From NCBI RefSeq assembly GCF_023333595.1, contig NZ_JAIQZM010000007.1:183763-215762 (forward strand): a stretch of DNA of 32,000 bases. Reading direction: 5' to 3'. Source of the DNA: Argonema galeatum A003/A1. Lineage in GTDB: Bacteria > Cyanobacteriota > Cyanobacteriia > Cyanobacteriales > Aerosakkonemataceae. This document shows positions 1,189 through 29,529 of this stretch, one piece after another. Both the position numbers and the translations under genes were made by a program. Positions within the stretch are counted from its first letter, which is position 1. Every line of letters starts with the position of its first letter. A model generated the notes under the pieces. That model was not told the DNA's origin and made no database searches. It was given only the letters and a program-made list of their open reading frames with translations.

Positions 1189-1851
1189 TTACGATCGTCC
1201 AATAGGTTGGATGGGGCTAACTTTGGCGCGATAGAGGAGTCGATCGCCCTGTCGATAGCCAGTGTAGCGTACCTTGATGCGATCGCCTGGTTGCGCCGTG
1301 AGATCCATCAGCTGATGCTGGTGGGGGTCGTAAGGCAACTCTGCTCCCACGGGTGCGATCGCCTCCACCCCCCATTGTTGCACGAGCTGTTCCACAGGTC
1401 GCAACAACGGCAGCAATTTTACAGCCGGTAGCTGAGGATTTTGCCCAGCAGCATAAGCAGCTGTGGGCCACTGGATGAGCCAAGATTCTAAAACCTCCAG
1501 ACTCGACTGCACAAATTCCTGCATCAAAGATTGTCGCTGTTCCTCCATTTGCTCTAGCAAGCGTTTGTACTCCTGCTGTAATGCTGGTGATGTTTCTGGC
1601 GATCCTGTAGTCCAATTTATTTGGCTCTTGCCAAAAGTTGCCAATAACTCGCTCACCGGCACTTGCAAAGCTTGACTGAGTTTGAGGATATTTTCTAAGA
1701 GCATCTGCATCACCTGTCCTCGCCGCAACCGCATTACCTGCCGTTCCGAGACACCTGCCTTGCGACTGAGAGCTTTAAAACTAGAAACACCCGCCAGCTG
1801 CATTAAACGTTGCAGCTGGTGGGTATAGTCTTGAAGCGGAGACTGGTTCAT
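1189..1851 (-). CDS. HTH-domain protein with a GrpE-like C-terminal domain
   Basis: 220-aa ORF. The N-terminal segment FKALSRKAGVSERQVMRLRRGQ looks like an HTH. The C-terminal PYDPHQHQLM...GDRIKVRYTGYRQGDRLLYRAKV resembles the GrpE beta-domain. Overlapping track ORFs on both strands are shorter and of low complexity. Confidence 0.5.
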   Translation of the reverse strand: MNQSPLQDYTHQLQRLMQLAGVSSFKALSRKAGVSERQVMRLRRGQVMQMLLENILKLSQALQVPVSELLATFGKSQINWTTGSPETSPALQQEYKRLLEQMEEQRQSLMQEFVQSSLEVLESWLIQWPTAAYAAGQNPQLPAVKLLPLLRPVEQLVQQWGVEAIAPVGAELPYDPHQHQLMDLTAQPGDRIKVRYTGYRQGDRLLYRAKVSPIQPIGRS

Positions 1852-1910
1852 CAGAGAAATGGGTTGAAACCCCGTCCGAAGAGCGAAGCGGAGGACGGCT
1901 TTACTGAAAT

Positions 1911-2282
1911 CTAGCTAGCAACAATTAATCCAGTTGAACGCCGAATTAACGTCACCTTGCTAGATGCTATCTGCCCTAACCGTTTCCAGTTAGCATCGCT
2001 GACAGATATCTGTTTTTCCGTGTCGCCACTAACGTAGCCAATCCCTTTTGGTGAATTGACCAAATCACCTTTGCGAACACCATGACGAGTTGTAGAACCG
2101 CCATACTTACGCCTGACGCCGCCAATAGAGGGAACCATTAAATGAAGTTGACGACGAGAAATAGGGGGGCGACGAATCACAAAGAATAGTGCAGGGGTAA
2201 CAGCAACGAAACCAAACCAGTTCGCACCACTTTCTGTTGTTTTGTGATAGCGTCTGTACTCAACTTGCGGCAGACGCAGCAA
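1911..2282 (-). CDS. isrB: C-terminal (TID-like) part of the same IsrB-like protein, in a different frame from 2260..3009
   Basis: ISRRQLHLMVPSIGGVRRKYGGSTTRHGVRKGDLVNSPKGIGYVSG resembles the IscB/IsrB C-terminal target-interaction region. It overlaps the upstream ORF by 23 nt in another frame, which implies a single-nt indel near 2260-2285. Confidence 0.65.
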   Translation of the reverse strand: MLRLPQVEYRRYHKTTESGANWFGFVAVTPALFFVIRRPPISRRQLHLMVPSIGGVRRKYGGSTTRHGVRKGDLVNSPKGIGYVSGDTEKQISVSDANWKRLGQIASSKVTLIRRSTGLIVAS

Positions 2283-3009
2283 TTGCTACCCCATCTACAG
2301 CGTGAGTGTTAAACTCAGCCGAAGACTTTTGAGTTTTATTTTTGAATAGCCCCAGATATGCACGGGTTAAAGCAGTTTGATAACCTTCAATTGTGGTAAC
2401 TGGTGCAAGCTTTTCTAACTGACTCAGCATCCAGCGCTGACCTACCATCACGGGGGAGAAACCTTTCCCCGATTTAGCTTTCTTGCGCCCTGATGTCAAA
2501 TCCACATCAGCCCGAACATATTCGTACCTAATTTCTGTGACTGGATAAATTTTGCTCAGTTCGGATACTATCCTGAGTTCGAGTTGACGGTTAGCTCGAA
2601 TTGATGGAGCTAGTTTACTATGACAACGATTGTCAAATCGTTGTTGACGATGAGCGCGTTTTGAGAATGCCACTTTTCGGTTAATCCTTCTCCCTCTACG
2701 TCCCCGCCGCATTAATCGTCGTGCGTCCATTCGTTGGCGCACTGTTTTAAATGGCAGAATCAAATGTGCCGTGTAGAGAGTGAATTTTGCTGATTGGACG
2801 CCAATTCCTGAATAATGCTTACCAGGGTCGATGCCAATTACAATGTCTTGAGTGGCATAGCCTGATGGCTCTACTGTCAATCGCACGTAAAATTGACCGC
2901 CATCCGACCAGCATTTTACAGCTTTGCCGGATTCAATCCATTTTCTTGCTCTGGCAGGGGTCGTGGGCATTAATGGTTGGTTGTCACGTGAAACAACTGG
3001 AATTCGCAT
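2260..3009 (-). CDS. isrB: IsrB-like OMEGA RNA-guided nuclease (HNH-less IscB, RRXRR/PLMP family), N-terminal 249 aa up to RuvC-III
   Basis: PLMP motif (DNQPLMPTTPARARKWI), RuvC-I IGIDPG, arginine-rich bridge helix RRLMRRGRRGRRINRK, RuvC-II EIRYEYV and RuvC-III NTHAVDGVAIA. No CxxC/HNH insert lies between RuvC-II and RuvC-III. The ORF stops a few codons after RuvC-III. Confidence 0.8.
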   Translation of the reverse strand: MRIPVVSRDNQPLMPTTPARARKWIESGKAVKCWSDGGQFYVRLTVEPSGYATQDIVIGIDPGKHYSGIGVQSAKFTLYTAHLILPFKTVRQRMDARRLMRRGRRGRRINRKVAFSKRAHRQQRFDNRCHSKLAPSIRANRQLELRIVSELSKIYPVTEIRYEYVRADVDLTSGRKKAKSGKGFSPVMVGQRWMLSQLEKLAPVTTIEGYQTALTRAYLGLFKNKTQKSSAEFNTHAVDGVAIAASAAS

Positions 3010-3054
3010 GATTTGGTATAACCCAAAATTGTTTGGTTGAGTCGAGGGGGAGTA

Positions 3055-4662
3055 TTACCTCCCGCCCCTCTCAGTTAGAACCGGACGTGCTGTTTTCACC
3101 GCATCCGGCTCCCGACGTTCTTGGCTTGCGCTTTTGCCCATGTGAATGTAATCGTGGCAGCTTTCGTGAATGGCTAGAAGGTTGTTTTTCTTCCAATTGT
3201 TATGGTTTCCATCAATATGATGGAGGTGTACCTTCTCGTTACTAAGCATTTTTAGTCCACAATACCCACATGAATGGTTTTGCTTTTTGAGAGCTTTAGA
3301 GGTTTCACCGTCGTAGAGCTTGCTGTTACGCTCACTCCAGTAGGGAACATCTCCGTCGTAGGGTGATTTTTCCCCTTTGACGTTAATGAATTTGTTTTCG
3401 GAGTAAGGGACTGATGGGAATGCTTTATCCAATAACTTCTTACTGGTTGAGCGATTCTGTTTAGATTCCTTGTTGAATACCCTGTAAGCCCTTGTTTCAA
3501 TGTGATAGAGCGAGTTTCTTGACCCGTCCATCTTGCAGTGGCGGTGGTAATTCCTCCAACCTCTAACTACAGGGGCTAATTTCTCAGCCTTTGTGGTAGC
3601 GCCATAATTCGAGTTGTTGACGATGTGTTTTACTTTCTGACGAAAAGCCTTGTAATTGTCCTCTGAAGGGACGCATCTAAACTTCCCGTTACTTTGCACT
3701 TTGAAGTGCCAGCCGAGGAAATCAAACCCATCTGTCGTAGCGGTTAGCTTGGTTTTCTTTTCACTAATCTTCATCCCCCTTTCCGCTAGAAACTGGCTTA
3801 TCTGCTCAAGTATTGCTACTGCATCGTCTTTGGGCTTTAGAATGAACACCATGTCGTCTGCATATCTGACAGATTGGTGGATGTCCTCTATACCATTGAG
3901 TGCGATGTTAGCTAATAGGGGACTCACCACCCCCCCTTGCGGGGTTCCCTGTTCGGGAAATTCTGGGTTGACTCCTGCTTTAAGGCATCGAAATATTCCG
4001 AGCTTAATACCCGTTGGGGCAATGAGTCGTTCCATTATAGATTTGTGAGCAATCCTGTCGAAGCATTTTTCGATATCGAGTTCTATAACCCGTTTTTCTA
4101 TTCCGTTGCAGTACGAGCGTAGGTTATTGAACAGGTATCTCTGAGCGTCATGTGTCGCCCTACCTGTCCTGAATCCGTAACTCCTAGCGTGGAAGGTTGC
4201 CTCTGCTGCTGGTTCTAGGGCTAGTTTTACAAGGCATTGCCAAGCTCTATCCCCGATAGTAGGCACTTTTAAGAGGCGGGTTGTCCCGTCCTTCTTAGGT
4301 ATGGGTATTTCCCGTAGTCTTTGATGTTTCCAGTTGCTACTTTTGGTTCTAAGTTCTTCACTTAGGTTCAACCTTTCCTCATGATTGAGTGAGGCTTTAC
4401 CATCTATACCTGCCGTTCTTTTTCCAGCGTTTAGCTGTGTTACCTGACGTATTGCCAGCATCCTAGCTGCGGTTGACTTGAGTATCAACCTTTGTAAGGA
4501 CATAGCTTTCCGTTTGTCTCCAACCTGAATCGCTTTGAACACTCGCCTTTGGAGGCGGAATAAATCCTTCTGGAATTTCTTCCAGGGCAGATTCTTCCAA
4601 GTTTCGCTAGCATTTCTGCTGCGTCTAAACATACTCTTCTCCAGTTCGTGTTTTCTGAACAC
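3055..4662 (-). CDS. Group II intron-encoded protein: reverse transcriptase, maturase (X) and HNH endonuclease domains
   Basis: 535-aa ORF. RT motifs GIDGK, TPQGGVVSPLLANIALN and RYADDMVF are present. HNH motifs CGYCG...HLHHIDGNHNNWKKNNLLAIHESCH are present. The C-terminal EPDAVKTARPVLTERGG tail is encoded by domain V/VI RNA. The true start may be the internal Met at 4632. Confidence 0.9.
   Translation of the reverse strand: MFRKHELEKSMFRRSRNASETWKNLPWKKFQKDLFRLQRRVFKAIQVGDKRKAMSLQRLILKSTAARMLAIRQVTQLNAGKRTAGIDGKASLNHEERLNLSEELRTKSSNWKHQRLREIPIPKKDGTTRLLKVPTIGDRAWQCLVKLALEPAAEATFHARSYGFRTGRATHDAQRYLFNNLRSYCNGIEKRVIELDIEKCFDRIAHKSIMERLIAPTGIKLGIFRCLKAGVNPEFPEQGTPQGGVVSPLLANIALNGIEDIHQSVRYADDMVFILKPKDDAVAILEQISQFLAERGMKISEKKTKLTATTDGFDFLGWHFKVQSNGKFRCVPSEDNYKAFRQKVKHIVNNSNYGATTKAEKLAPVVRGWRNYHRHCKMDGSRNSLYHIETRAYRVFNKESKQNRSTSKKLLDKAFPSVPYSENKFINVKGEKSPYDGDVPYWSERNSKLYDGETSKALKKQNHSCGYCGLKMLSNEKVHLHHIDGNHNNWKKNNLLAIHESCHDYIHMGKSASQERREPDAVKTARPVLTERGGR
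3078..3111 (-). ncRNA. Group II intron domain V (catalytic hairpin)
   Basis: GAGCCGGAUGCGGUGAAAACAGCACGUCCGGUUC is 34 nt. The AGC triad sits at positions 2-4, the AC bulge at positions 24-25 and the hairpin is capped by a GAAA tetraloop. Confidence 0.85.
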
Positions 4663-5187
4663 CTTTCAGCAATTACGCTGAATCCTACCCGAATTGTGGG
4701 AATTCCGACGCTCGTCTGTCCTACTTGAGGTTCGACATCCTCTAGACCCACATTCCGTTTTTATTCGTTCCTTCGGTTGATTGTTCGTCCCGTTAGATGT
4801 AGCCAATTCGACCATTGGAAACCCTGGACTCTTACCGCTATTAGACTTAGTATGCGGCGGGTTTTATCTCCAATGAAGTCAGGGTTTTAGTGTTATGTCC
4901 TGCTCGCGAATAGGTCGCTTTTCTAGGCTCGGTTTCATCATAGGGACTCCCCGTTAGCGCCAGTGTTATCTCATAACAGATGTCTGATTGCGCTCTGTTC
5001 CCAGCTTCACTCTCCAAGAATCGAGCTTGGTCGGTGTGGGCAGGTAGGGAGTCATGCCTGAGTCTGGCAGAAGGGGCTTACACCCTTATCAGACCGAGAG
5101 TTCAGCCTTTTGTTGACAGTAACTGCTGTCAGGCTGGAAGTGCTATGTACGGGCTTTCACCGTGATTCACACCTCAACGAATCGCAC

Positions 5188-5375
5188 AAGTCTCTTCGCC
5201 CAACTCAACGCCGGATGTCTTGGCTTTCCCAACGCCTAAACCAATTAGGCTTACAGAGCTCCGAACTAGAGAAGCATTCGGATGTATGTACCAAGTTGAG
5301 TCTCAACGGGCTATTCGCCTCTTACGTTGTCCGAACCAATTCGGACAATCCTCGTCCCTTTAGGGCGAGGTTGGT
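5188..5375 (-). ncRNA. Putative omega-RNA (HEARO-like) 5' portion of the IsrB element, acting as the 5' exon of the intron; the remainder would be 3035..3010
   Basis: This is the non-coding stretch between the dps stop and the intron. It is densely structured: CCTCGCCC-TAAA-GGGACGAGG, TTGTCCGAA-TTGG-TTCGGACAA, GTTGAG-AC-TCAAC, GCCTAA-TTGG-TTTAGGC and a second CGTTGAG copy. Its position upstream of isrB matches where IscB/IsrB omega-RNAs are encoded. No covariance-model search was possible. Confidence 0.4.
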
Positions 5376-5866
5376 GAATCTTCGAGCAAACTTCTTAACA
5401 TCCAAGCATTCTTTTCGTGTATGTGCATCCGCTGAGTCAAGAGATCGGCACTTGGTTCGTCATTCACCCCCTCAACGCTAGGGAAGATAGAGCGAGCGGT
5501 TCGCACTACAGCTTCTTGACCTTCAACCAGTAGGCGGATCATTTCCTGCGCTTTGGGAACGCCTGCTGTCTCTTTTATCGAGCTTAACCTTGCATAATCG
5601 CTGTAAGTTCCAGTCGCCGGAAAGCCCAAAGCTCTGATTCGTTCCGCAATTAGATCCACAGCTAGAGCCAATTCAGTGTACTGCGTCTCGAACATCAAAT
5701 GCAATGTCTGGAACATGGGGCCTGTGACGTTCCAGTGAAAGTTGTGGGTTTTCAGGTAAAGCGTATAGGTGTCCGCTAGCAGGCGAGACAGTCCTTGGGC
5801 AATTTCTTGGCGAGCTTGTTCGTCAATGCCGATGTTTACTGGTATAGCTTTGTCGTGAAGTTGCAT
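5360..5866 (-). CDS. dps: Dps-family DNA-binding ferritin-like protein
   Basis: From the internal Met: MQLHDKAIPVNIGID...LADTYTLYLKTHNFHWNVTGPMFQTLHLMFE...HEKNAWMLRSLLE, the classic Dps signature. The longer track ORF (to 5983) overlaps srxA and was rejected. Confidence 0.85.
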   Translation of the reverse strand: MQLHDKAIPVNIGIDEQARQEIAQGLSRLLADTYTLYLKTHNFHWNVTGPMFQTLHLMFETQYTELALAVDLIAERIRALGFPATGTYSDYARLSSIKETAGVPKAQEMIRLLVEGQEAVVRTARSIFPSVEGVNDEPSADLLTQRMHIHEKNAWMLRSLLEDSPTSP

Positions 5867-6342: not shown

Positions 6343-8034
6343 ATGCTCGATCAAAAAAGATATATCGCGAGGCAGCTGATGCAGAGAACTACTTCTATCC
6401 TCAGAGAGATTGTGATGGTAACTCGGTATCGCGACAGTCGATGGGTGGGTTACTGGTGGCGTACAGCGGTGACCGTGTTTTGTTTGGTAGGACTCACAGC
6501 AGACGTGCGAGCAACGGCTGTGGGTGGGGATGTGGAACTCAAAGTCGGGATTGTGCAGCGATTTGGTGCCACACCGGAGGACGAGCTGACTTTGAAGGCG
6601 ACAGAGGGCAAAGGCTTGACATTGCGGTTCCTAGCTGGAAATATGGAGCCACAAACTGTTTTGGCGAACAGCATCAAGCTGGAAATACAGATGCAACCGC
6701 TAGCAGTGCCAGAAGTGCAAGAGCAAGTTGTCCTCAGTACCAACCCAAACTTCGAGACAGCGGAAGATAGTGCCGAACAGTGGCGTGCAAAAGGGATTGA
6801 AGTCGAGATAGCTCAGCCAAGACGTTGGCAGGTTTGGGCCAAACGGGATATTTACAGTACTCCCTTACTGCGACGGTTGCTGCTTCAGAGTCTGGAAGCC
6901 CAAGGCTTTAAAACGGCTTATTTGGATACGGAAATTAAGAAACAGGAACCAAAGCCGTCTTGGGTGGTCAATGGTTTGCGCTACAACCGCAAAAACCTAG
7001 AGATCGTATCCGAGCGAAATAGGATTCAGGTATATCAGGGTAAAAACGATCGAACCGGGCGGATATTCGTCGGAGTTCTCCGACTCCAGCCTAACGCTTA
7101 CGGCACCTACACCTTAGTCAATCAAGTACCCCTAGAGACATATTTGCGGGGGGTTGTGCCGAATGAAATTGGAGCCAGGGCACCTTATGCGGCTCTAGAA
7201 GCCCAGACGATTTTGGCGCGGACTTACGCCCTGCGGAACTTACGCCGATTTGCGATCGATGGTTACGAACTTTCTGCGGACATTCACTGCCAAGTTTATT
7301 ACGGACTCAGCGGTGCTTTTCCCCAGACGGATAAAGCGATCGCAGCCACGAAAGGCTTAGTGATCGTCTACAACAACGAGTTGATCGATGCAGTTTATTC
7401 TTCCACAACTGGCGGCGTCACCGCCTCCTTCAAAGATATTTGGAACGGTGCAGAGCGGCCTTATCTACGTCCGGTGGTGGATGCGGTGAGCAATATTTGG
7501 GATCTGGGTCGCGACAGTTTGGCAGACGATCAAAACTTACGGAAGTTTATCAACTTGCAGAAAGGCTTCAACGAAGAGGGCAAAAGTTTGTTTCGCTGGC
7601 GCAAAGAAACCAGCCTTCCAGACCTGGCGCTGCAGTTGCAGAAGTATCTCCAGGACAAAAAACATCCGCTGGCCAAGTTTAAAATGGTTCAGCAGATGCA
7701 GGTGGTAGAGCGATCCCCAAGTGGGCGCATCCTTAAAATGGTCGTGCAGACCGATCGGGGTGCGATCGAACTGCACAAAGAAGAAGTTCGCAGCGCCTTT
7801 CTCGCTCCTATCAGCACGCTGTTTTATCTAGATCCCGTCAAAAAAGACAACCAAACTCTATGGGGCTACGCCTTTGTCGGGGGTGGATACGGACACGGCG
7901 TCGGCTTGAGTCAAACGGGTGCCTATCAGTTAGGGAATCTGGGTTGGTCCAGTCAGCAGATTCTGAACTTTTATTATCCCGGCACTCAAATCCAGCCCCT
8001 TAACGATTCCATCAGCTTTTGGCAGGCCCAGTGA
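6343..8034 (+). CDS. SpoIID/LytB-domain protein (lytic transglycosylase / amidase enhancer family)
   Basis: Motifs VVPNEIGARAPYAALEAQTILARTYAL, YSSTTGG and GHGVGLSQTGA are present, with an N-terminal hydrophobic segment. The start is uncertain and may be Met at 6415. Confidence 0.8.
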   Translation: MLDQKRYIARQLMQRTTSILREIVMVTRYRDSRWVGYWWRTAVTVFCLVGLTADVRATAVGGDVELKVGIVQRFGATPEDELTLKATEGKGLTLRFLAGNMEPQTVLANSIKLEIQMQPLAVPEVQEQVVLSTNPNFETAEDSAEQWRAKGIEVEIAQPRRWQVWAKRDIYSTPLLRRLLLQSLEAQGFKTAYLDTEIKKQEPKPSWVVNGLRYNRKNLEIVSERNRIQVYQGKNDRTGRIFVGVLRLQPNAYGTYTLVNQVPLETYLRGVVPNEIGARAPYAALEAQTILARTYALRNLRRFAIDGYELSADIHCQVYYGLSGAFPQTDKAIAATKGLVIVYNNELIDAVYSSTTGGVTASFKDIWNGAERPYLRPVVDAVSNIWDLGRDSLADDQNLRKFINLQKGFNEEGKSLFRWRKETSLPDLALQLQKYLQDKKHPLAKFKMVQQMQVVERSPSGRILKMVVQTDRGAIELHKEEVRSAFLAPISTLFYLDPVKKDNQTLWGYAFVGGGYGHGVGLSQTGAYQLGNLGWSSQQILNFYYPGTQIQPLNDSISFWQAQ

Positions 8035-19559: not shown

Positions 19560-19760
19560 GAACTAAAGGTAACAGTTTGAGTTGCCCTCATCGCCCTGGC
19601 GGTTGCTATAAATTGTCAAAAACGATTAAGATGCCGATCGCAACTTTGGCAACAGAGGCGATCGCATAGCGTGCTGTAGGCATATCGTGCTACCGTTCGA
19701 TTTTTGCTAACATTCATTAACAAAAACTTCCTGTTTCATCTGGGACTGTCGGCAGCACCC
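19560..19760 (-). ncRNA. Putative TnpB omega-RNA/reRNA, overlapping the 3' end of tnpB and the transposon right end
   Basis: Assigned by position only: TnpB guide RNAs derive from the ORF 3' end plus the right end. The structured stretch GCGATCGCCTCTGTTGCCAAAGTTGCGATCGGC lies here. The exact 3' boundary was not determined. Confidence 0.35.
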
Positions 19761-20877
19761 CATCCACAAGCAGACACGAGAGAACTTCCCGCGTTAATTT
19801 CTCAATGTTGATTGCCGCATTTAAATCTCTATCCAATTCTAAGCCACAATCACATCGATAAACTCGTTCTGATAATGCTAAAACCTCTTTGACTTTGACG
19901 CAGTTTGAACAGGTTTTACTACTTGGCTTAAACCTGCCAATCACTACTAGCTTACTGCCATACAACAGACATTTGTATTCTAACTGGCGACGAAATTCAT
20001 AAAATCCCATATCCCCGATCGATGCAGCTAAACAATGATTCTTCATCATCCCTGACACATTCAAATCCTCAATTCCTACTACCGCGTGGTTTTTGCTTAA
20101 GTAGTTAGTTAGTTTATGTAATGTGTCCAATCGGATATTGGCTATCTTTTGATGCAGTCGCGCTAAGGCTTTGACTGCTTTAAACCTGTTGGCAGAACCT
20201 TTCTGACGACGTGCTACAATGCGTTGGAGTTTGGCTAATTTCTGTTTGGCTTTTTGGTAAGACTTTGCACCAGTAAATATTTCTCCTGTCGATAGGGTAG
20301 CTAGGGTTTTTATTCCTAAGTCTACTCCCACTACATCCCGTTTTTTTGGGGTTGATTGAATTGGCTTTTCTATTTTAAATGAGATATACCATCGGTCGGC
20401 TTTTCTGCTAATGGTGACTGATTTCGGTTTTGTCCCTACTGGTAATCGCTCAAAAGTTTTCAGCTTTCCTAAGATTGGTACTTTGATGCTCTGGTGTTCT
20501 ATGTGGATAGAACCATCTAGAGTAAATGAGTCACAGTGACCTTTTTTCTTGAATTTAGGAAAACCTTTTACACCGTTGAAGAACTGTTTAAATGCTTCTG
20601 ACAAATGCCTTAAGGCATATTGGGGGGCGCATTTACTTACTTCGTAATACCAAGGATTTTGGGTTTTTATTGATGCTACTAGCCATTTATGCAGGTCAAT
20701 GGCTGTGGGAAATTTAATTTGGGATTCTGGATGAGAACGGTTGTGTTCTAAGACGGCAAGACATAAAGCCAAACCTTGATTCCAGGCGTGACGTGCTACG
20801 CCTGCGTGTTTGGCTAGAGATTGCCGCCGCGAAGAATTGATTTTGATTTGAGTTTTAAATCCCAGTAGCATAGCCAA
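19717..20877 (-). CDS. tnpB: TnpB (IS200/IS605-family OrfB) RNA-guided endonuclease, with no adjacent tnpA
   Basis: 386 aa with RuvC motifs VGVDLGIKTLA, VVGIEDLNV and DRDLNAAINI, and a zinc finger CSNC...CDCG. Confidence 0.9.
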   Translation of the reverse strand: MAMLLGFKTQIKINSSRRQSLAKHAGVARHAWNQGLALCLAVLEHNRSHPESQIKFPTAIDLHKWLVASIKTQNPWYYEVSKCAPQYALRHLSEAFKQFFNGVKGFPKFKKKGHCDSFTLDGSIHIEHQSIKVPILGKLKTFERLPVGTKPKSVTISRKADRWYISFKIEKPIQSTPKKRDVVGVDLGIKTLATLSTGEIFTGAKSYQKAKQKLAKLQRIVARRQKGSANRFKAVKALARLHQKIANIRLDTLHKLTNYLSKNHAVVGIEDLNVSGMMKNHCLAASIGDMGFYEFRRQLEYKCLLYGSKLVVIGRFKPSSKTCSNCVKVKEVLALSERVYRCDCGLELDRDLNAAINIEKLTREVLSCLLVDGVLPTVPDETGSFC

Positions 20878-25982: not shown

Positions 25983-27545
25983 TTATTTCTCCAGGGCTGG
26001 AAAGTTTTTGATAAAATCAAAAACTACGCTAGCAGAAGGCGGAGTATATTTCACTGGCTCTATTGAAGTTATTTGGTCGGGATTGGCGAAGCTGGATGGT
26101 TTAACAAAACGTTTCCCAAACTGGGGATGATGATATATATTCAAAGTTTGATCGCTAGAATTAGTTAAAACGATCTGGGTAGGAGATTGAAAAAATTTAG
26201 AATCTTCCTTGATTGCGAAACTACTTTTCAATAACTTGACGGAAAAAATTTTGCTCAATCCTTGAATAAGGGCGTTACTCAACTTCTGTAGGCGATCGGG
26301 TTCTTTGATACTTAAATTGTCCATCTCTTGCGATTGCAGCATCTGCATTAAGATAATGATATTTTTATGAGTAGCTTCACTATCTGTAAAGGGAAGAATA
26401 GCAAGGTAAGCAGTGGAAAATAATTGGTTATCGTTATCTATCACAAATGTGAGCAGAGTGCGGCGACGGCCTACTTTAATGCTGGGTGGTAGGTAGAAAA
26501 CTGACTGTTGCTGAGCGATTTGATGGTAACAGGAAGCTAAGGTAAAATGAGATTCGTGGTCTAAGGGTGCGTCGATAATAATCTGGACGGTAGGTAAAGT
26601 TTGATGAAAAAACTTTCTCGCTTCTTCAGAACTGAGGCGGTAAATCTGGGTCCGATCGCCATCCGGGCTTAAATCTACCCACTCACAAATTAAGCCTTCA
26701 GTTTTCAGACCGAAGCGAGAAACCGCATAAAGTTTTGCCCCAGTTAAAGTAGCTCCCGATAAGTCCGCACCAGTCCAATCAGCCCGGATCAATCTTGCTT
26801 GTGTGAGATCGGCGTGAACCAAGCTGGCATTTAATAAATTGGCATTGCTTAAGTCTGCCCCAATTAAGTTAGCCCCACTCAATTTGGCATCGCTGAGATC
26901 GGCCCATCTCAAATTCGCGCCACTTAAGTCAACCCATCTCAGATTTGCCCCACTCAAATTGGCTCCGCTCAAGTTGGCGCAACTGAGGTTAGCTTGTCTG
27001 AGTTCGGCATCTCTCAGGTTAGCGCCAGTAAGATCGGCTCGACTCAGATCGCTTCCATGCAAATTTGCCCCCTCCAAGTTGGCTGCTGTCAGAGAAGCAC
27101 CCCTGAGATTAGCCCCACTCAGGTTAGCGCGACTGAGGTTAGCTTGTCTAAGTTTTGCTTCTCGGAGATCAGCACTGGTGAGGTTAGCCCCTGTAAGGTT
27201 CGCCCTGCTGAGTTCGGCTCGAATCAGTTCGGCTCTGATTAAGGCTGCTTGGATGAGTTCCGCTCCACCCAGGTCTGCTCGAATCAAGTTAGCCACGTTG
27301 AGAACAGCTCTGTTCAAGTTAGCCTTGGTGAGATTAGCACCGCTCAGTCTGGCGACGTTGAGTTTGGCATGACTTAAGTTTGCTGCATAGAGATTTGCGC
27401 CACTGAGGTTAGCCACACTCAGGTTAGCCCCACTTAAATTAGCACCGCTCAGGTTAAAACCACTCAGGTTAGCCTCGGTCAGGTTGGCAGCAGCAAAGTT
27501 TCTTTCTCCTGCTTCGTATTTAGTTATAAATTCTTCGACTTCCAT
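25983..27545 (-). CDS. Pentapeptide-repeat protein (520 aa) with an unassigned C-terminal domain of about 230 aa, paralogue 1
   Basis: The N-terminal roughly 280 aa are A(N/D)LSx repeats. The C-terminal domain begins LYAVSRFGLKTEGLICEWVDLSPDGDR. Confidence 0.85.
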   Translation of the reverse strand: MEVEEFITKYEAGERNFAAANLTEANLSGFNLSGANLSGANLSVANLSGANLYAANLSHAKLNVARLSGANLTKANLNRAVLNVANLIRADLGGAELIQAALIRAELIRAELSRANLTGANLTSADLREAKLRQANLSRANLSGANLRGASLTAANLEGANLHGSDLSRADLTGANLRDAELRQANLSCANLSGANLSGANLRWVDLSGANLRWADLSDAKLSGANLIGADLSNANLLNASLVHADLTQARLIRADWTGADLSGATLTGAKLYAVSRFGLKTEGLICEWVDLSPDGDRTQIYRLSSEEARKFFHQTLPTVQIIIDAPLDHESHFTLASCYHQIAQQQSVFYLPPSIKVGRRRTLLTFVIDNDNQLFSTAYLAILPFTDSEATHKNIIILMQMLQSQEMDNLSIKEPDRLQKLSNALIQGLSKIFSVKLLKSSFAIKEDSKFFQSPTQIVLTNSSDQTLNIYHHPQFGKRFVKPSSFANPDQITSIEPVKYTPPSASVVFDFIKNFPALEK

Positions 27546-27678: not shown

Positions 27679-29226
27679 TCAAGGAAATGTTTTGATAAAA
27701 TCACAGATTACATTCAAAGCAGGCAATGCTAACTTATTGGTATTTACAGCTATTTTAACCGAAGGTTCTATCTTCACTGGCGTAATAATCTTTTTGCCAA
27801 AAGTAGGATGATTATAAAGATTCAAAACTCTGTCGTTGGAATTATTTAAAATTGTTTGAGTTGGAGATTGAAAGAAATTACCCTTTTTTAGATTTTTAGG
27901 GAAATATTTCAAAATCTTACTTTTGTGGAGTTTAGTAATTAAGTGAATTAGGTCGCCACTTATTTGCTGAAGTTGATTTTTTTCTTGAGCGTTCAGAGTT
28001 TCTATATCTTCTTGTTGAACCATTTGGAGCAAAGTCATGATATTTTCCTGAGTGGCAGAGGCATCGTCAAAGGGGGAAATAGCGACATAAGCAGTAGGAA
28101 ATAATTGCTCGTCACTATCAATCCTAAGTGTGATAGTAGTTCTCCGATCGCCCACTTCAATACTGGGTGGGCGATTTAGGCTCGGATATTCTTGAGCGAA
28201 GTGATAATAAGTAGCAGCTAAGGCAAAGTTAGCGTCTTGGTCTAAAGGGGCATCGACGATGATGCGGATCGTAGGTAATGTTTGATGAAAAAACCTTCTT
28301 GCTTCTTCGACGCTCAGACGGTAGATCGCAGAGCGATCGCCATCCGGGCTTAAATCCATCCACTCGCAGGTCATCCCTTCCGTCTTCAGACCGAAGCGGG
28401 AAACAGCATACAGCTTAGCTCCGGTTAAAGTTGCACCCGTTAGATCGGCACCAACCCAATCTGCCCGGATCAAATTGGCTTGGCTTAAATCCGCATGAAC
28501 CAGACTAGCATTTAATAAGTTCGCATTGCTCAAATCCGCCCCACTTAAGTTTGCCCCACTCAACTTTGCCTCGCTCAGGTTAGCCCATTTGAGATTCACT
28601 CCACTCAAATCGGCCCATCTCAGATTCGCCCCACTCAAATCAGCGCCGCTCAGATCGGCTAAACCGAGATTGGTTTGTCTGAGTTCTGCACCTCTGAGGT
28701 CGGCTCCGCTGAGGTCAGCCCGACTCAGATCGCTCCCGTGCAAGTTAGCCTGTTCCAAGCTAGCTTCTGTCAGGCAGGTTCCCCTGAGATTGGCCTCGCT
28801 CAGGTTAGCTCCGCTCAAGTTAGCTAACCTAAGTCTTGCCTCTGCTAAATCGGCTCCTGTCAAGTTAGCTCCGCTCAAGTTAGCTCCGCTGAGTTCGGCC
28901 CGAATCAGTTCGGCTCTGATCAGGGAAGCTTGCACGAGTTCGGCTCCACCCAGGTCAGCGCGAACCAAATTGGCTACGTTAAGGATAGCTCCGTTTAAAT
29001 TGGCATTAGTGAGATTGGCGCCACTGAGCCTAGCAACGTTGAGTTTTGCCTGACTTAGATTGGCTTCGCTCAGGTTAGCGCCGCTGAGGTTTGATATGCT
29101 CAGATTGGCCCCGCTCAAATTGGCCCCGCTCAGGTTAACGCCACTTAAATTGGCCTCGCTGAGGTTAACACCAGTAAAATCTCTGGCTCCTGCTGCGTAT
29201 TTTTTTAGAAATTCTTCTACTTGCAT
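27679..29226 (-). CDS. Pentapeptide-repeat protein with the same C-terminal domain, paralogue 2
   Basis: It is collinear with 25983..27545 over its full length (LYAVSRFGLKTEGMTCEWMDLSPDGDR...). The start is set at Met 29226. Confidence 0.85.
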   Translation of the reverse strand: MQVEEFLKKYAAGARDFTGVNLSEANLSGVNLSGANLSGANLSISNLSGANLSEANLSQAKLNVARLSGANLTNANLNGAILNVANLVRADLGGAELVQASLIRAELIRAELSGANLSGANLTGADLAEARLRLANLSGANLSEANLRGTCLTEASLEQANLHGSDLSRADLSGADLRGAELRQTNLGLADLSGADLSGANLRWADLSGVNLKWANLSEAKLSGANLSGADLSNANLLNASLVHADLSQANLIRADWVGADLTGATLTGAKLYAVSRFGLKTEGMTCEWMDLSPDGDRSAIYRLSVEEARRFFHQTLPTIRIIVDAPLDQDANFALAATYYHFAQEYPSLNRPPSIEVGDRRTTITLRIDSDEQLFPTAYVAISPFDDASATQENIMTLLQMVQQEDIETLNAQEKNQLQQISGDLIHLITKLHKSKILKYFPKNLKKGNFFQSPTQTILNNSNDRVLNLYNHPTFGKKIITPVKIEPSVKIAVNTNKLALPALNVICDFIKTFP

Positions 29227-29529
29227 TAGGCTACCTTGCACACATACGGACTAGATTGATGGAACGGACGGCGCGGGAGTGCCAATACCATTTCACTTTT
29301 AGTTTGCTACATCTGGGAGACAGAAGAGGCTCTTGGAGGCAAGCTGCATGGGCGCAACTAGCAGTCGAAAGCCCCAGACTGCCTCAACAAGAGTTTTGTG
29401 TCCATATTCCAATTGTTAACGCTGATATGCTAAGAGCGCTAACCCTACTGTATAGGTTGGGCTTTATACTTTAACGAGTAAACCCAGTCTCCTAGACTAG
29501 ATAGCAGCGATCGTATCGGTGGACTCTCT

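Follow-up and report, generated by a model that had tools for sequence, protein, structure and literature searches.

A group II intron nested within the omega-RNA leader of an IsrB element in the cyanobacterium Argonema galeatum

The OMEGA nucleases IscB, IsrB and TnpB are the ancestors of Cas9 and Cas12. Here we describe an OMEGA element of the IsrB type in Argonema galeatum A003/A1 whose leader, the region that encodes the omega-RNA (the guide RNA of such elements) and runs up to the nuclease gene, is interrupted by a group II intron. The analysed DNA is a 32,000-nt stretch of contig NZ_JAIQZM010000007.1, called the window below; all window coordinates count from its first letter. The element lies on the minus strand, where, read 5' to 3', the end of dps is followed by a structured leader, the intron, a further 26 nt and the nuclease gene isrB (Table 1).

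The dps locus and its two nested elements

Both ends of the element were set by aligning the window with the corresponding site in Argonema antarcticum, which is empty (...GCTCGAAGA followed directly by ATGAACCAG). In this relative the gene order is kept, Dps is 96% identical, and dps overlaps the next gene, which encodes a helix-turn-helix (HTH) protein, by ATGA. Homology with other copies of the element begins at TTCACC at the left end and stops at ...CTCTG at the right end; CTG followed by ATGA is found at the right end in seven of seven aligned copies, and the empty site agrees. Such right ends fit an NTGA-type target-adjacent motif, as is the TTGA of DtIsrB (PMC9581776), and they fit the insertion reported for ISC elements, which takes place beside a 4-bp site without duplication (PMC4810608). 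By its insertion the element has pulled apart the ATGA overlap of dps and the HTH gene and has replaced the last dps codon, turning ...LLEE* into ...LLEDSPTSP* with a gain of five residues (window 5360..5378 and 1848..1851). The element is a non-autonomous OMEGA element of the IS200/IS605 type, located between dps and the HTH gene, with ends defined by the empty site and a target-adjacent motif seen in the seven right ends. Its guide is presumably taken from the flank: the sequence of the presumed guide flank precedes ATGA in the empty site of A. antarcticum, and the guide portion of the RNA would derive from the 3' end of dps, with AAGUUUGCUCGAAGA then ATGA as the predicted target. In A. antarcticum the HTH gene is followed closely downstream by a different OMEGA element (IscB, 428 amino acids (aa); locus L159, 3937..5223), at a place where the window is free of one; the dps/HTH neighbourhood has been struck by different elements in two close relatives.

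The nuclease gene occupies two open reading frames. The first-pass annotation of this DNA had recognised an IsrB protein without HNH in the first of them, and this is borne out: the product has the RRXRR/PLMP region and a split RuvC fold with no HNH insert, and the thousands of cyanobacterial IsrB homologues, 364-365 aa in length, have PF14239 as their only domain and are likewise without HNH. The NCBIfam model guided_IscB matches the N-terminal half only, at 102 bits, which is under its cut-off of 175. It had also been proposed that the second reading frame supplies the tail of the same protein. The two are indeed one gene, for when joined they are 92% identical over the full length to a 365-aa RRXRR protein of A. 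antarcticum; that they lie in different frames had gone unremarked. One extra base near 2268 (gcc-ttt-gtt becomes gccgcaagtt) causes a +1 frameshift and a stop after codon 249, and this base is absent from all intact homologues (six in the alignment). Programmed frameshifting was ruled out, as the site lacks a slippery run and the intact homologues simply do not have the extra base. Relative to the A. antarcticum copy, isrB has this single 1-nt insertion and otherwise 86 substitutions, distributed over codon positions 1:2:3 as 18:13:55, which suggests that the decay is recent and that the gene was under purifying selection until lately. As judged from the reading frames, the window copy would yield no full-length IsrB.

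The intron had been annotated at 5187..3036, and both of these boundaries proved exact. Relatives inserted elsewhere, at sites unrelated to this one, align with the segment along its whole length (positions 1-2152); one of them lies within a polyketide synthase gene (locus L007). In each relative the loops that carry the exon-binding sites (EBS1 and EBS2) differ and match the relative's own 5' exon, while the spacing IBS2-N-IBS1 of the intron-binding sites (IBS) is constant; the first exon base 3' of the intron is usually a C, and the window too has a C at +1. Homology from end to end, together with exon pairing matched to each locus, indicates that the intron boundaries are exact and that the site was reached by retrohoming. 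The intron has the expected group II features, namely a 5' GUGYG, a 3' AY, domains V and VI with a bulged A, EBS/IBS complementarity, and a reverse transcriptase (RT)/maturase encoded in domain IV. At the Rfam gathering thresholds (40 bits for Intron_gpII, RF00029; 83 bits for the omega-RNA model HEARO, RF02033) the window gives the intron only, and HEARO surfaces only in E-value mode. A scan for promoter-like sites (5 found, 5.2 expected) and terminator-like sites (6 found, 4.7 expected) was uninformative.

The intron-encoded protein (IEP) is full length and shares 91-92% identity along its entire sequence with many IEPs of cyanobacteria; the intron therefore looks intact. The IEP scores 283 bits against TIGR04416, just below the cut-off of 300, and its HNH match is weak (Pfam HNH E=0.0035, 17.9 bits against a cut-off of 21.4), with a Cys/His motif visible in the translation. 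Its reading frame crosses domain V and stops within domain VI (window 3055..3113, minus strand), so that RNA structure and coding overlap at the 3' end of the intron. Proliferating group II introns with diverged exon-binding sites are known from cyanobacteria, as in the cases of Thermosynechococcus and Trichodesmium. The window intron shares with these the many closely related copies at unrelated sites and an EBS1/EBS2 that fits the exon of each copy; copies in tandem or nested in one another are found too, and there is no essential difference; from its sequence it looks like an ordinary member of such a proliferating swarm. At two Microcoleus loci several domain V matches per locus (L010: 3380..3457, 5020..5087 and 7295..7374; L012: 2598..2675 and 4186..4263) point to tandem or nested introns.

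Table 1. Features of the nested elements in the window (positions in nt from the first letter of the window).
Feature	Position	Strand	Basis or remark
Target-adjacent motif ATGA, right end	1848..1851	-	doubles as native start codon of the HTH gene
Whole OMEGA (IsrB) insertion sequence	1852..5378	-	3,527 bp with intron, 1,375 bp without; empty site in A. antarcticum
Right end with subterminal hairpin CCGTCC...GGACGG (1872..1898)	1852..1910	-	kept in seven copies
isrB, C-terminal part, +1 frame; extra base ~2268	1911..2282	-	alignment to homologues
isrB, N-terminal part, 249 codons to premature stop	2260..3009	-	Pfam RRXRR (PF14239), E=6.5e-49
3' exon part of leader: CAAAC linker and terminal hairpin	3010..3035	-	leader alignment, profile
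Terminal SL7-like hairpin UUUGG-GUUAUA-CCAAA with Shine-Dalgarno-like GGG	3012..3027	-	invariant G-UUAU-C core; helices 13/14
Group II intron, 2,152 nt, GUGCG to CUCAAC	3036..5187	-	Rfam domains V/VI, end-to-end homology, EBS/IBS
Intron domains V and VI	3036..3113	-	Rfam Intron_gpII RF00029, 54.2 bits (above gathering score of 40)
IEP, 525 aa: reverse transcriptase, maturase, HNH-like tail	3055..4632	-	Pfam RVT_N, RVT_1, GIIM
EBS1 AAGUCU	4843..4848	-	pairs with IBS1 AGACUU
EBS2 UUCGC	4906..4910	-	pairs with IBS2 GCGAA
IBS1 AGACUU (5188..5193) and IBS2 GCGAA (5195..5199)	5188..5199	-	complementary to EBS1 and EBS2
Omega-RNA scaffold (5' exon): helices P1-P7 and both pseudoknots	5188..5378	-	Rfam HEARO, family profile, covariation
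Pseudoknot 2, 3' strand AGAGA	5191..5195	-	pairs with hairpin loop UCUCU 5268..5272; covariation helix 10
Pseudoknot 1, 3' strand UGGGC	5198..5202	-	pairs with GCCCG 5307..5311; covariation helices 5/6
Presumed guide-encoding flank (3' end of dps)	5379..5398	-	directly 5' of scaffold; presumed from OMEGA model

The omega-RNA leader and the point of interruption

HEARO aligns with its whole model (positions 1-211) to 5378..5184 of the window, at 38.6 bits (E=1.5e-5 in a 4.7-kb scan) and so below its gathering score; the last four model positions land by chance on GUGC of the intron. The intron-less A. antarcticum copy reaches 69 bits, and an IscB-type copy (L002, described below) 112.5 bits. 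IsrB-type leaders have the HEARO architecture in common and score under the cut-off. The region had first been taken as a hairpin-rich, non-coding leader at 5188..~5375; it is structured and HEARO-like as supposed, but it starts at 5378, where it overlaps the dps stop codon, and is accordingly not wholly non-coding.

The structure of the leader was assessed by comparison with relatives. The sample comprised 62 IsrB loci from metagenomes, for which about 40 leaders were matched; 31 leaders, whose encoded proteins are 51-92% identical, were aligned, with 500 shuffles and slid alignments as controls for covariation. A family profile was built from 29 intron-less IsrB leaders, the window and its closest relative being left out, and was used to compare the spliced with the genomic leader by profile hidden Markov model. 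The consensus structure has 62 pairs that are 91.9% paired across the 31 leaders, 46 of them with compensatory changes; none of the 500 shuffles matches this, and the slid controls are at most 49% paired. Both pseudoknots are supported. In pseudoknot 1, pairing is 89.5% in helix 5, where three of the four pairs covary, and in a fifth pair, a G-U in the window, only one side varies; pseudoknot 2 (helix 10) is 100% paired, with two covarying pairs (CG 20, UA 10, GC 1; UA 27, CG 4). A duplicated CGTTGAG/CTCAAC motif had been thought suited to alternative pairing. The helix between CUCAAC and the distal GUUGAG does covary, whereas the proximal copy, (A/G)UUGAGAC, stays constant while that helix changes sequence; pairing of CUCAAC with either copy as alternatives was therefore dropped, since the distal pairing alone covaries.

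At its 3' end the leader closes with a small hairpin that can be formed in all 31 leaders, with 3-5 bp and the stem variants UUGG/CCAA, GGA/UCC, AGA/UCU and GGG/CCC, and that in the window ends 2 nt before the AUG. In IsrB systems the omega-RNA reaches the start codon, and its terminal hairpin, stem-loop 7 (SL7), carries the Shine-Dalgarno sequence and contacts the PLMP domain; truncation of SL7/8 lowers nicking (PMC9581776). A structured omega-RNA directly 5' of the reading frame and on the same strand is found here as well, supported by covariation and by the profile of the spliced sequence, and split in the genome by the intron.

The profile locates this split precisely. When the leader is spliced in silico it scores 188.0 bits, uninterrupted to the AUG. 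On the genomic 5' side the score is 163.3 bits and the match stops exactly at GACTT, the 5' splice site; the genomic 3' exon gives 8.6 bits, to the closing part of the model. The 31 leaders remain conserved beyond the insertion point, with a GACUU(A/C)AAAC linker, a short variable spacer and an invariant G-UUAU-C core before the AUG. Because the profile halts at the 5' splice site in the genome and crosses the spliced junction, we conclude that the intron lies inside the conserved leader, as had first been proposed. It sits 3 nt past the 3' strand of pseudoknot 2, with the terminal hairpin beginning 8 nt after the junction, so that the split-off part comprises only the last ~26 nt of the leader, with the terminal hairpin and the ribosome-binding GGR, plus the gene. 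The predicted ligated exons would read ...GAGACUU-CAAACAAU..., that is ...GGGCGAAGAGACUU joined to CAAACAAUUUUGGG, which agrees with the junction first predicted. The intron-less A. antarcticum copy reads GGGCGAAGAGACT-CAAACATTTTTGGG at this point, and the window is one T longer there.

The relatives further show what the uninterrupted unit looks like. The roughly 40 matched metagenome leaders are all contiguous with their own reading frame; no intron was seen in them (about 40 of the 62 loci matched). Exact look-ups of the truncated IsrB and the IEP of the window gave no match either, and in this search, which included no scan aimed at the junction pattern itself, no other copy of the insertion came to light. 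Some relatives carry deletions: in L150, L151 and L152 (for example L150 2758..3093) omega-RNA leaders are fused directly to the last ~30 isrB codons, and in L125 (3001..3786) the leader is joined to an internally deleted isrB. Their sequences suggest that they arose by deletion, with the guide RNA and the two ends retained.

The position of the intron also bears on the folding of the scaffold. IBS2 and IBS1 overlap six of the ten nt that make up the 3' strands of the two pseudoknots. On the unspliced transcript these bases can therefore serve the omega-RNA fold or the intron pairing, never both, and folding of the scaffold would be expected to compete with splicing.

Related introns in other omega-RNA genes

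Related introns have entered HEARO/omega-RNA genes in three further, independent cases (L002/L003, L051 and L156), two of which adjoin an intact iscB or isrB. Including the window, four insertions occupy four different positions, with no common site.

The closest relative of the IEP (92% identity) occurs in 25 contigs, with six places in several metagenome samples among those listed. In at least two contigs (L002 and L003) its intron lies upstream of an intact gene for a 425-aa IscB. In L002 the intron (2969..5200) interrupts the first hairpin of the HEARO match, in its apical part, and the same holds for L003-L006; the 5' exon is GUCAACGACCCACCACUAAUCGGAGUACCGA and the 3' exon CUAUAGUGGGGGCUUGCAG, and the joined exons fold into P1 and hairpins as expected. 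L002 is a cleaner case than the window of a guide RNA that would require splicing. Between domains V and VI its intron has an insertion of ~110 nt (5057..5165) with four TGTTCCC heptamer repeats. In Scytonema sp. PMC 1070.18 (L051 2884..5422) an orphan HEARO, without iscB downstream, is split in a small hairpin, HEARO matches flanking the intron. The third case is plasmid CP070234.1 of Dolichospermum sp. DET69 (L156 2492..6856), where the loop of an IsrB leader's terminal hairpin holds two identical 2,182-nt introns in tandem (...AAGGAUUA, intron, C, intron, CUCUCUUUAUG), with a single C between them. The second intron ends 8 nt before the AUG, EBS2/EBS1 match the exon, and the IsrB, 56% identical to that of the window, is intact at 371 aa. 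The tandem could be real or could be an assembly artefact of this metagenome-derived plasmid. Since the nucleases of L002 and Dolichospermum are intact and either the scaffold (L002) or the terminal hairpin (Dolichospermum) is split, both are better test subjects than the window.

The neighbours and flanks of related introns were surveyed to see whether this lineage is specialised on OMEGA leaders. At 80 genome loci with IEP relatives (73-92% identity), together with L001-L007 and the window, tblastn with IsrB and IscB as queries found none beside iscB/isrB except the sources of the queries (L001 and L002/L003) and the window. Among the 66 genome loci with a readable flank, nhmmer over ~307 kb of flanks found HEARO at L051 only and no other omega-RNA. 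With one of 66 readable loci in HEARO and none of the 80 beside iscB/isrB, an intron lineage specialised on OMEGA leaders was rejected, and as the cases are few we claim no enrichment. Plasmid matches in Halotia branconii and Anabaena cylindrica PCC 7122 that reach a few bases into the 5' exon were dropped, as no RRXRR gene lies nearby.

Elsewhere in the window there is a second, unrelated OMEGA-type element with a 386-aa TnpB (19717..20877, minus strand; OrfB_IS605, Cas12f1-like TNB and HTH_OrfB_IS605 domains). Two adjacent 520-aa pentapeptide-repeat proteins (25983..27545 and 27679..29241, minus strand) form an apparent tandem pair.

Interpretation of the nested arrangement

We consider it probable that the locus consists of nested selfish elements in which a contiguous leader and isrB message would be reconstituted by splicing. 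Given the +1 frameshift in isrB, the likeliest account is that one parasite has settled in another and is tolerated there, as opposed to the two having evolved into a switch. An OMEGA element of 1,375 bp, consisting of omega-RNA and isrB, first entered the dps/HTH site in a close relative of A. antarcticum, immediately 5' of ATGA, and the guide part of its RNA would have been copied from the 3' end of dps. The mobile intron retrohomed into the element later; its EBS2 pairs with GCGAA and its EBS1 with AGACUU, both within the single-stranded 3' segment of that RNA. The primary transcript should then carry the guide and the whole folded scaffold in its 5' exon, with the terminal hairpin and isrB 2.15 kb away; a contiguous omega-RNA/isrB mRNA, and the translation of isrB, would need splicing, and the folding of the scaffold should compete with exon-intron pairing. 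At best, the RNA of the window copy could act with IsrB supplied from another place in the genome.

Several observations weigh against this interpretation. HEARO aligns entirely on the 5' exon side, which also holds all helices, both pseudoknots and 163 of the 188 profile bits (87% of the family profile score), and the 5' exon by itself may be a usable omega-RNA. The covariation of the terminal hairpin is modest (helix 13 is 75% paired, helix 14 shows one-sided variation, and there are only 3-5 pairs), and the conserved terminal motif might serve translation alone. In addition, the window junction GACUU/CAAAC is one base longer than in most homologues (GACUUAAAC or GACUCAAAC), and the frameshift in isrB could be a sequencing error.

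Alternatively, the omega-RNA could be functionally complete in the 5' exon and the intron could interrupt only the translation-initiation region of isrB, so that the synthesis of IsrB alone would depend on splicing. We regard this as possible, if on balance doubtful. In its favour, HEARO positions 1-211 find their place at 5378..5184, all covarying helices are 5' of the intron, and the 3' motif has a Shine-Dalgarno-like GGR at normal spacing from the AUG; in DtIsrB, moreover, removal of SL8 is without effect and removal of SL7/8 reduces nicking without abolishing it (PMC9581776). However, the G-UUAU-C core and its hairpin are kept down to 51% protein identity, with compensatory stems (AGA/UCU, GGG/CCC), SL7 touches the PLMP domain in the solved complex (PMC9581776), and RF02033 is reported to be without the downstream structural elements (PMC10055086). 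The claim of the first-pass annotation that a functional omega-RNA could form only after splicing is not supported in that form, as the helices, the pseudoknots and most of the profile score lie in the 5' exon and a complete HEARO match, which that annotation had itself named as a ground for refutation, is formally found on one side of the intron.

A more far-reaching idea is that cyanobacterial group II introns land repeatedly, and by preference, in OMEGA guide-RNA genes, thereby creating natural splicing-gated guide RNAs; the exon-binding sites would compete with the omega-RNA pseudoknots and hairpins, so that splicing and folding regulate each other. If true, this would be the group II counterpart of the conflict in IStrons, elements that combine an intron with an OMEGA guide RNA (see below), but we think it improbable. 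The 5' exon might be set free in the first step of splicing, as a trimmed omega-RNA, and the single-stranded DNA intermediates of IS200/IS605 transposition might favour reverse splicing into such elements.

Very unlikely, in our view, is an evolved regulatory coupling in which splicing gates or shapes guide-RNA production, for example because the first step frees the 5' exon as mature omega-RNA, or because scaffold folding and IsrB binding repress splicing as TnpB and omega-RNA do in IStrons. The overlap of IBS1/IBS2 with six nt of the pseudoknot 3' strands would suit it, as would the three further independent insertions (L002/L003, L051 and L156), two of them beside intact iscB/isrB, and the IStron precedent of antagonism between intron and omega-RNA (PMC10690162). 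Yet the four insertions are at four positions, only one of 66 readable genome loci is in HEARO and none is beside iscB/isrB, some 40 matched metagenome IsrB leaders are without an intron, the isrB of the window is frameshifted, and bacterial group II introns are often found within other mobile elements (PMC4810608). The proposal that nuclease activity is coupled to splicing fails for the window copy, which with its frameshift cannot do so by itself.

That the locus is an assembly chimera, in which a repeated intron was misjoined into a repeated insertion sequence, is scarcely credible: both elements are multi-copy in cyanobacteria, many related contigs are collapsed repeats of 1.3-2.2 kb, and the window proteins are absent from the exact-match collection, so that there is no second assembly for comparison, but EBS1/EBS2 of the window intron are specifically complementary to the flanking omega-RNA, with the usual spacing and a C at +1, and both junctions fall at the same leader point with no loss or duplication beyond one T.

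The preferred reading, a nested parasitic insertion, can be set beside known systems. With IsrB OMEGA elements (ISC1/IscB1; DtIsrB, PMC9581776; PMC4810608) the window element shares the RRXRR/PLMP and RuvC fold without HNH, the upstream HEARO-like RNA with two pseudoknots and a Shine-Dalgarno sequence in the terminal hairpin, the absence of tnpA, the insertion at an NTGA-type motif without target duplication and the guide from the flank; it differs in that its leader is interrupted by a 2.15 kb intron and its nuclease gene is frameshifted. IStrons, in which a group I intron is combined with IS200/IS605/IS607 and TnpB (PMC10690162, PMC4227781), likewise have a self-splicing intron and an OMEGA guide on one transcript, with competing structures expected, and for these group I elements the antagonism between intron and guide RNA is established (PMC10690162). 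In an IStron, however, the transposon and the group I intron share their ends, and splicing, which takes out the element in full, destroys the guide RNA, whereas in the window an autonomous group II retroelement is nested in the guide-RNA gene, at a distance of 191 nt from the left end and 1,184 nt from the right end of the insertion sequence, and its splicing would restore the guide RNA.

RT-HNH group II introns in IS605 transposons of Anabaena cylindrica PCC 7122 and of Nostoc sp. PCC 7107 were noted in 2016 (PMC4810608, Fig. S9). The window shares with them an intron, here encoding a reverse transcriptase with an HNH-like tail, that lies inside an element of the IS200/IS605 family in a filamentous cyanobacterium; those cases were described without reference to a guide RNA, whereas the window insertion is mapped within the omega-RNA/leader. 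No account of a group II intron within an IscB/IsrB omega-RNA gene came up in full-text literature searches. The novelty first suggested, which concerned the omega-RNA, is not contradicted by the papers searched; the nesting of group II introns in cyanobacterial IS605 transposons is already on record. Nesting in an omega-RNA gene looks unreported; as nested mobile elements are already known, it is not a new class.

To our knowledge, the only interplay described between an intron and an OMEGA guide RNA is that of the group I IStron, where splicing destroys the guide RNA. At the window and the three other loci the guide-RNA gene holds a group II intron, and the guide RNA would have to be rebuilt by splicing. 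If these RNAs do not splice, they would be an example of one mobile element silencing another. If they do, they would be natural guide RNAs with ribozyme-dependent assembly, and would offer a direct test of the competition between folding and splicing.

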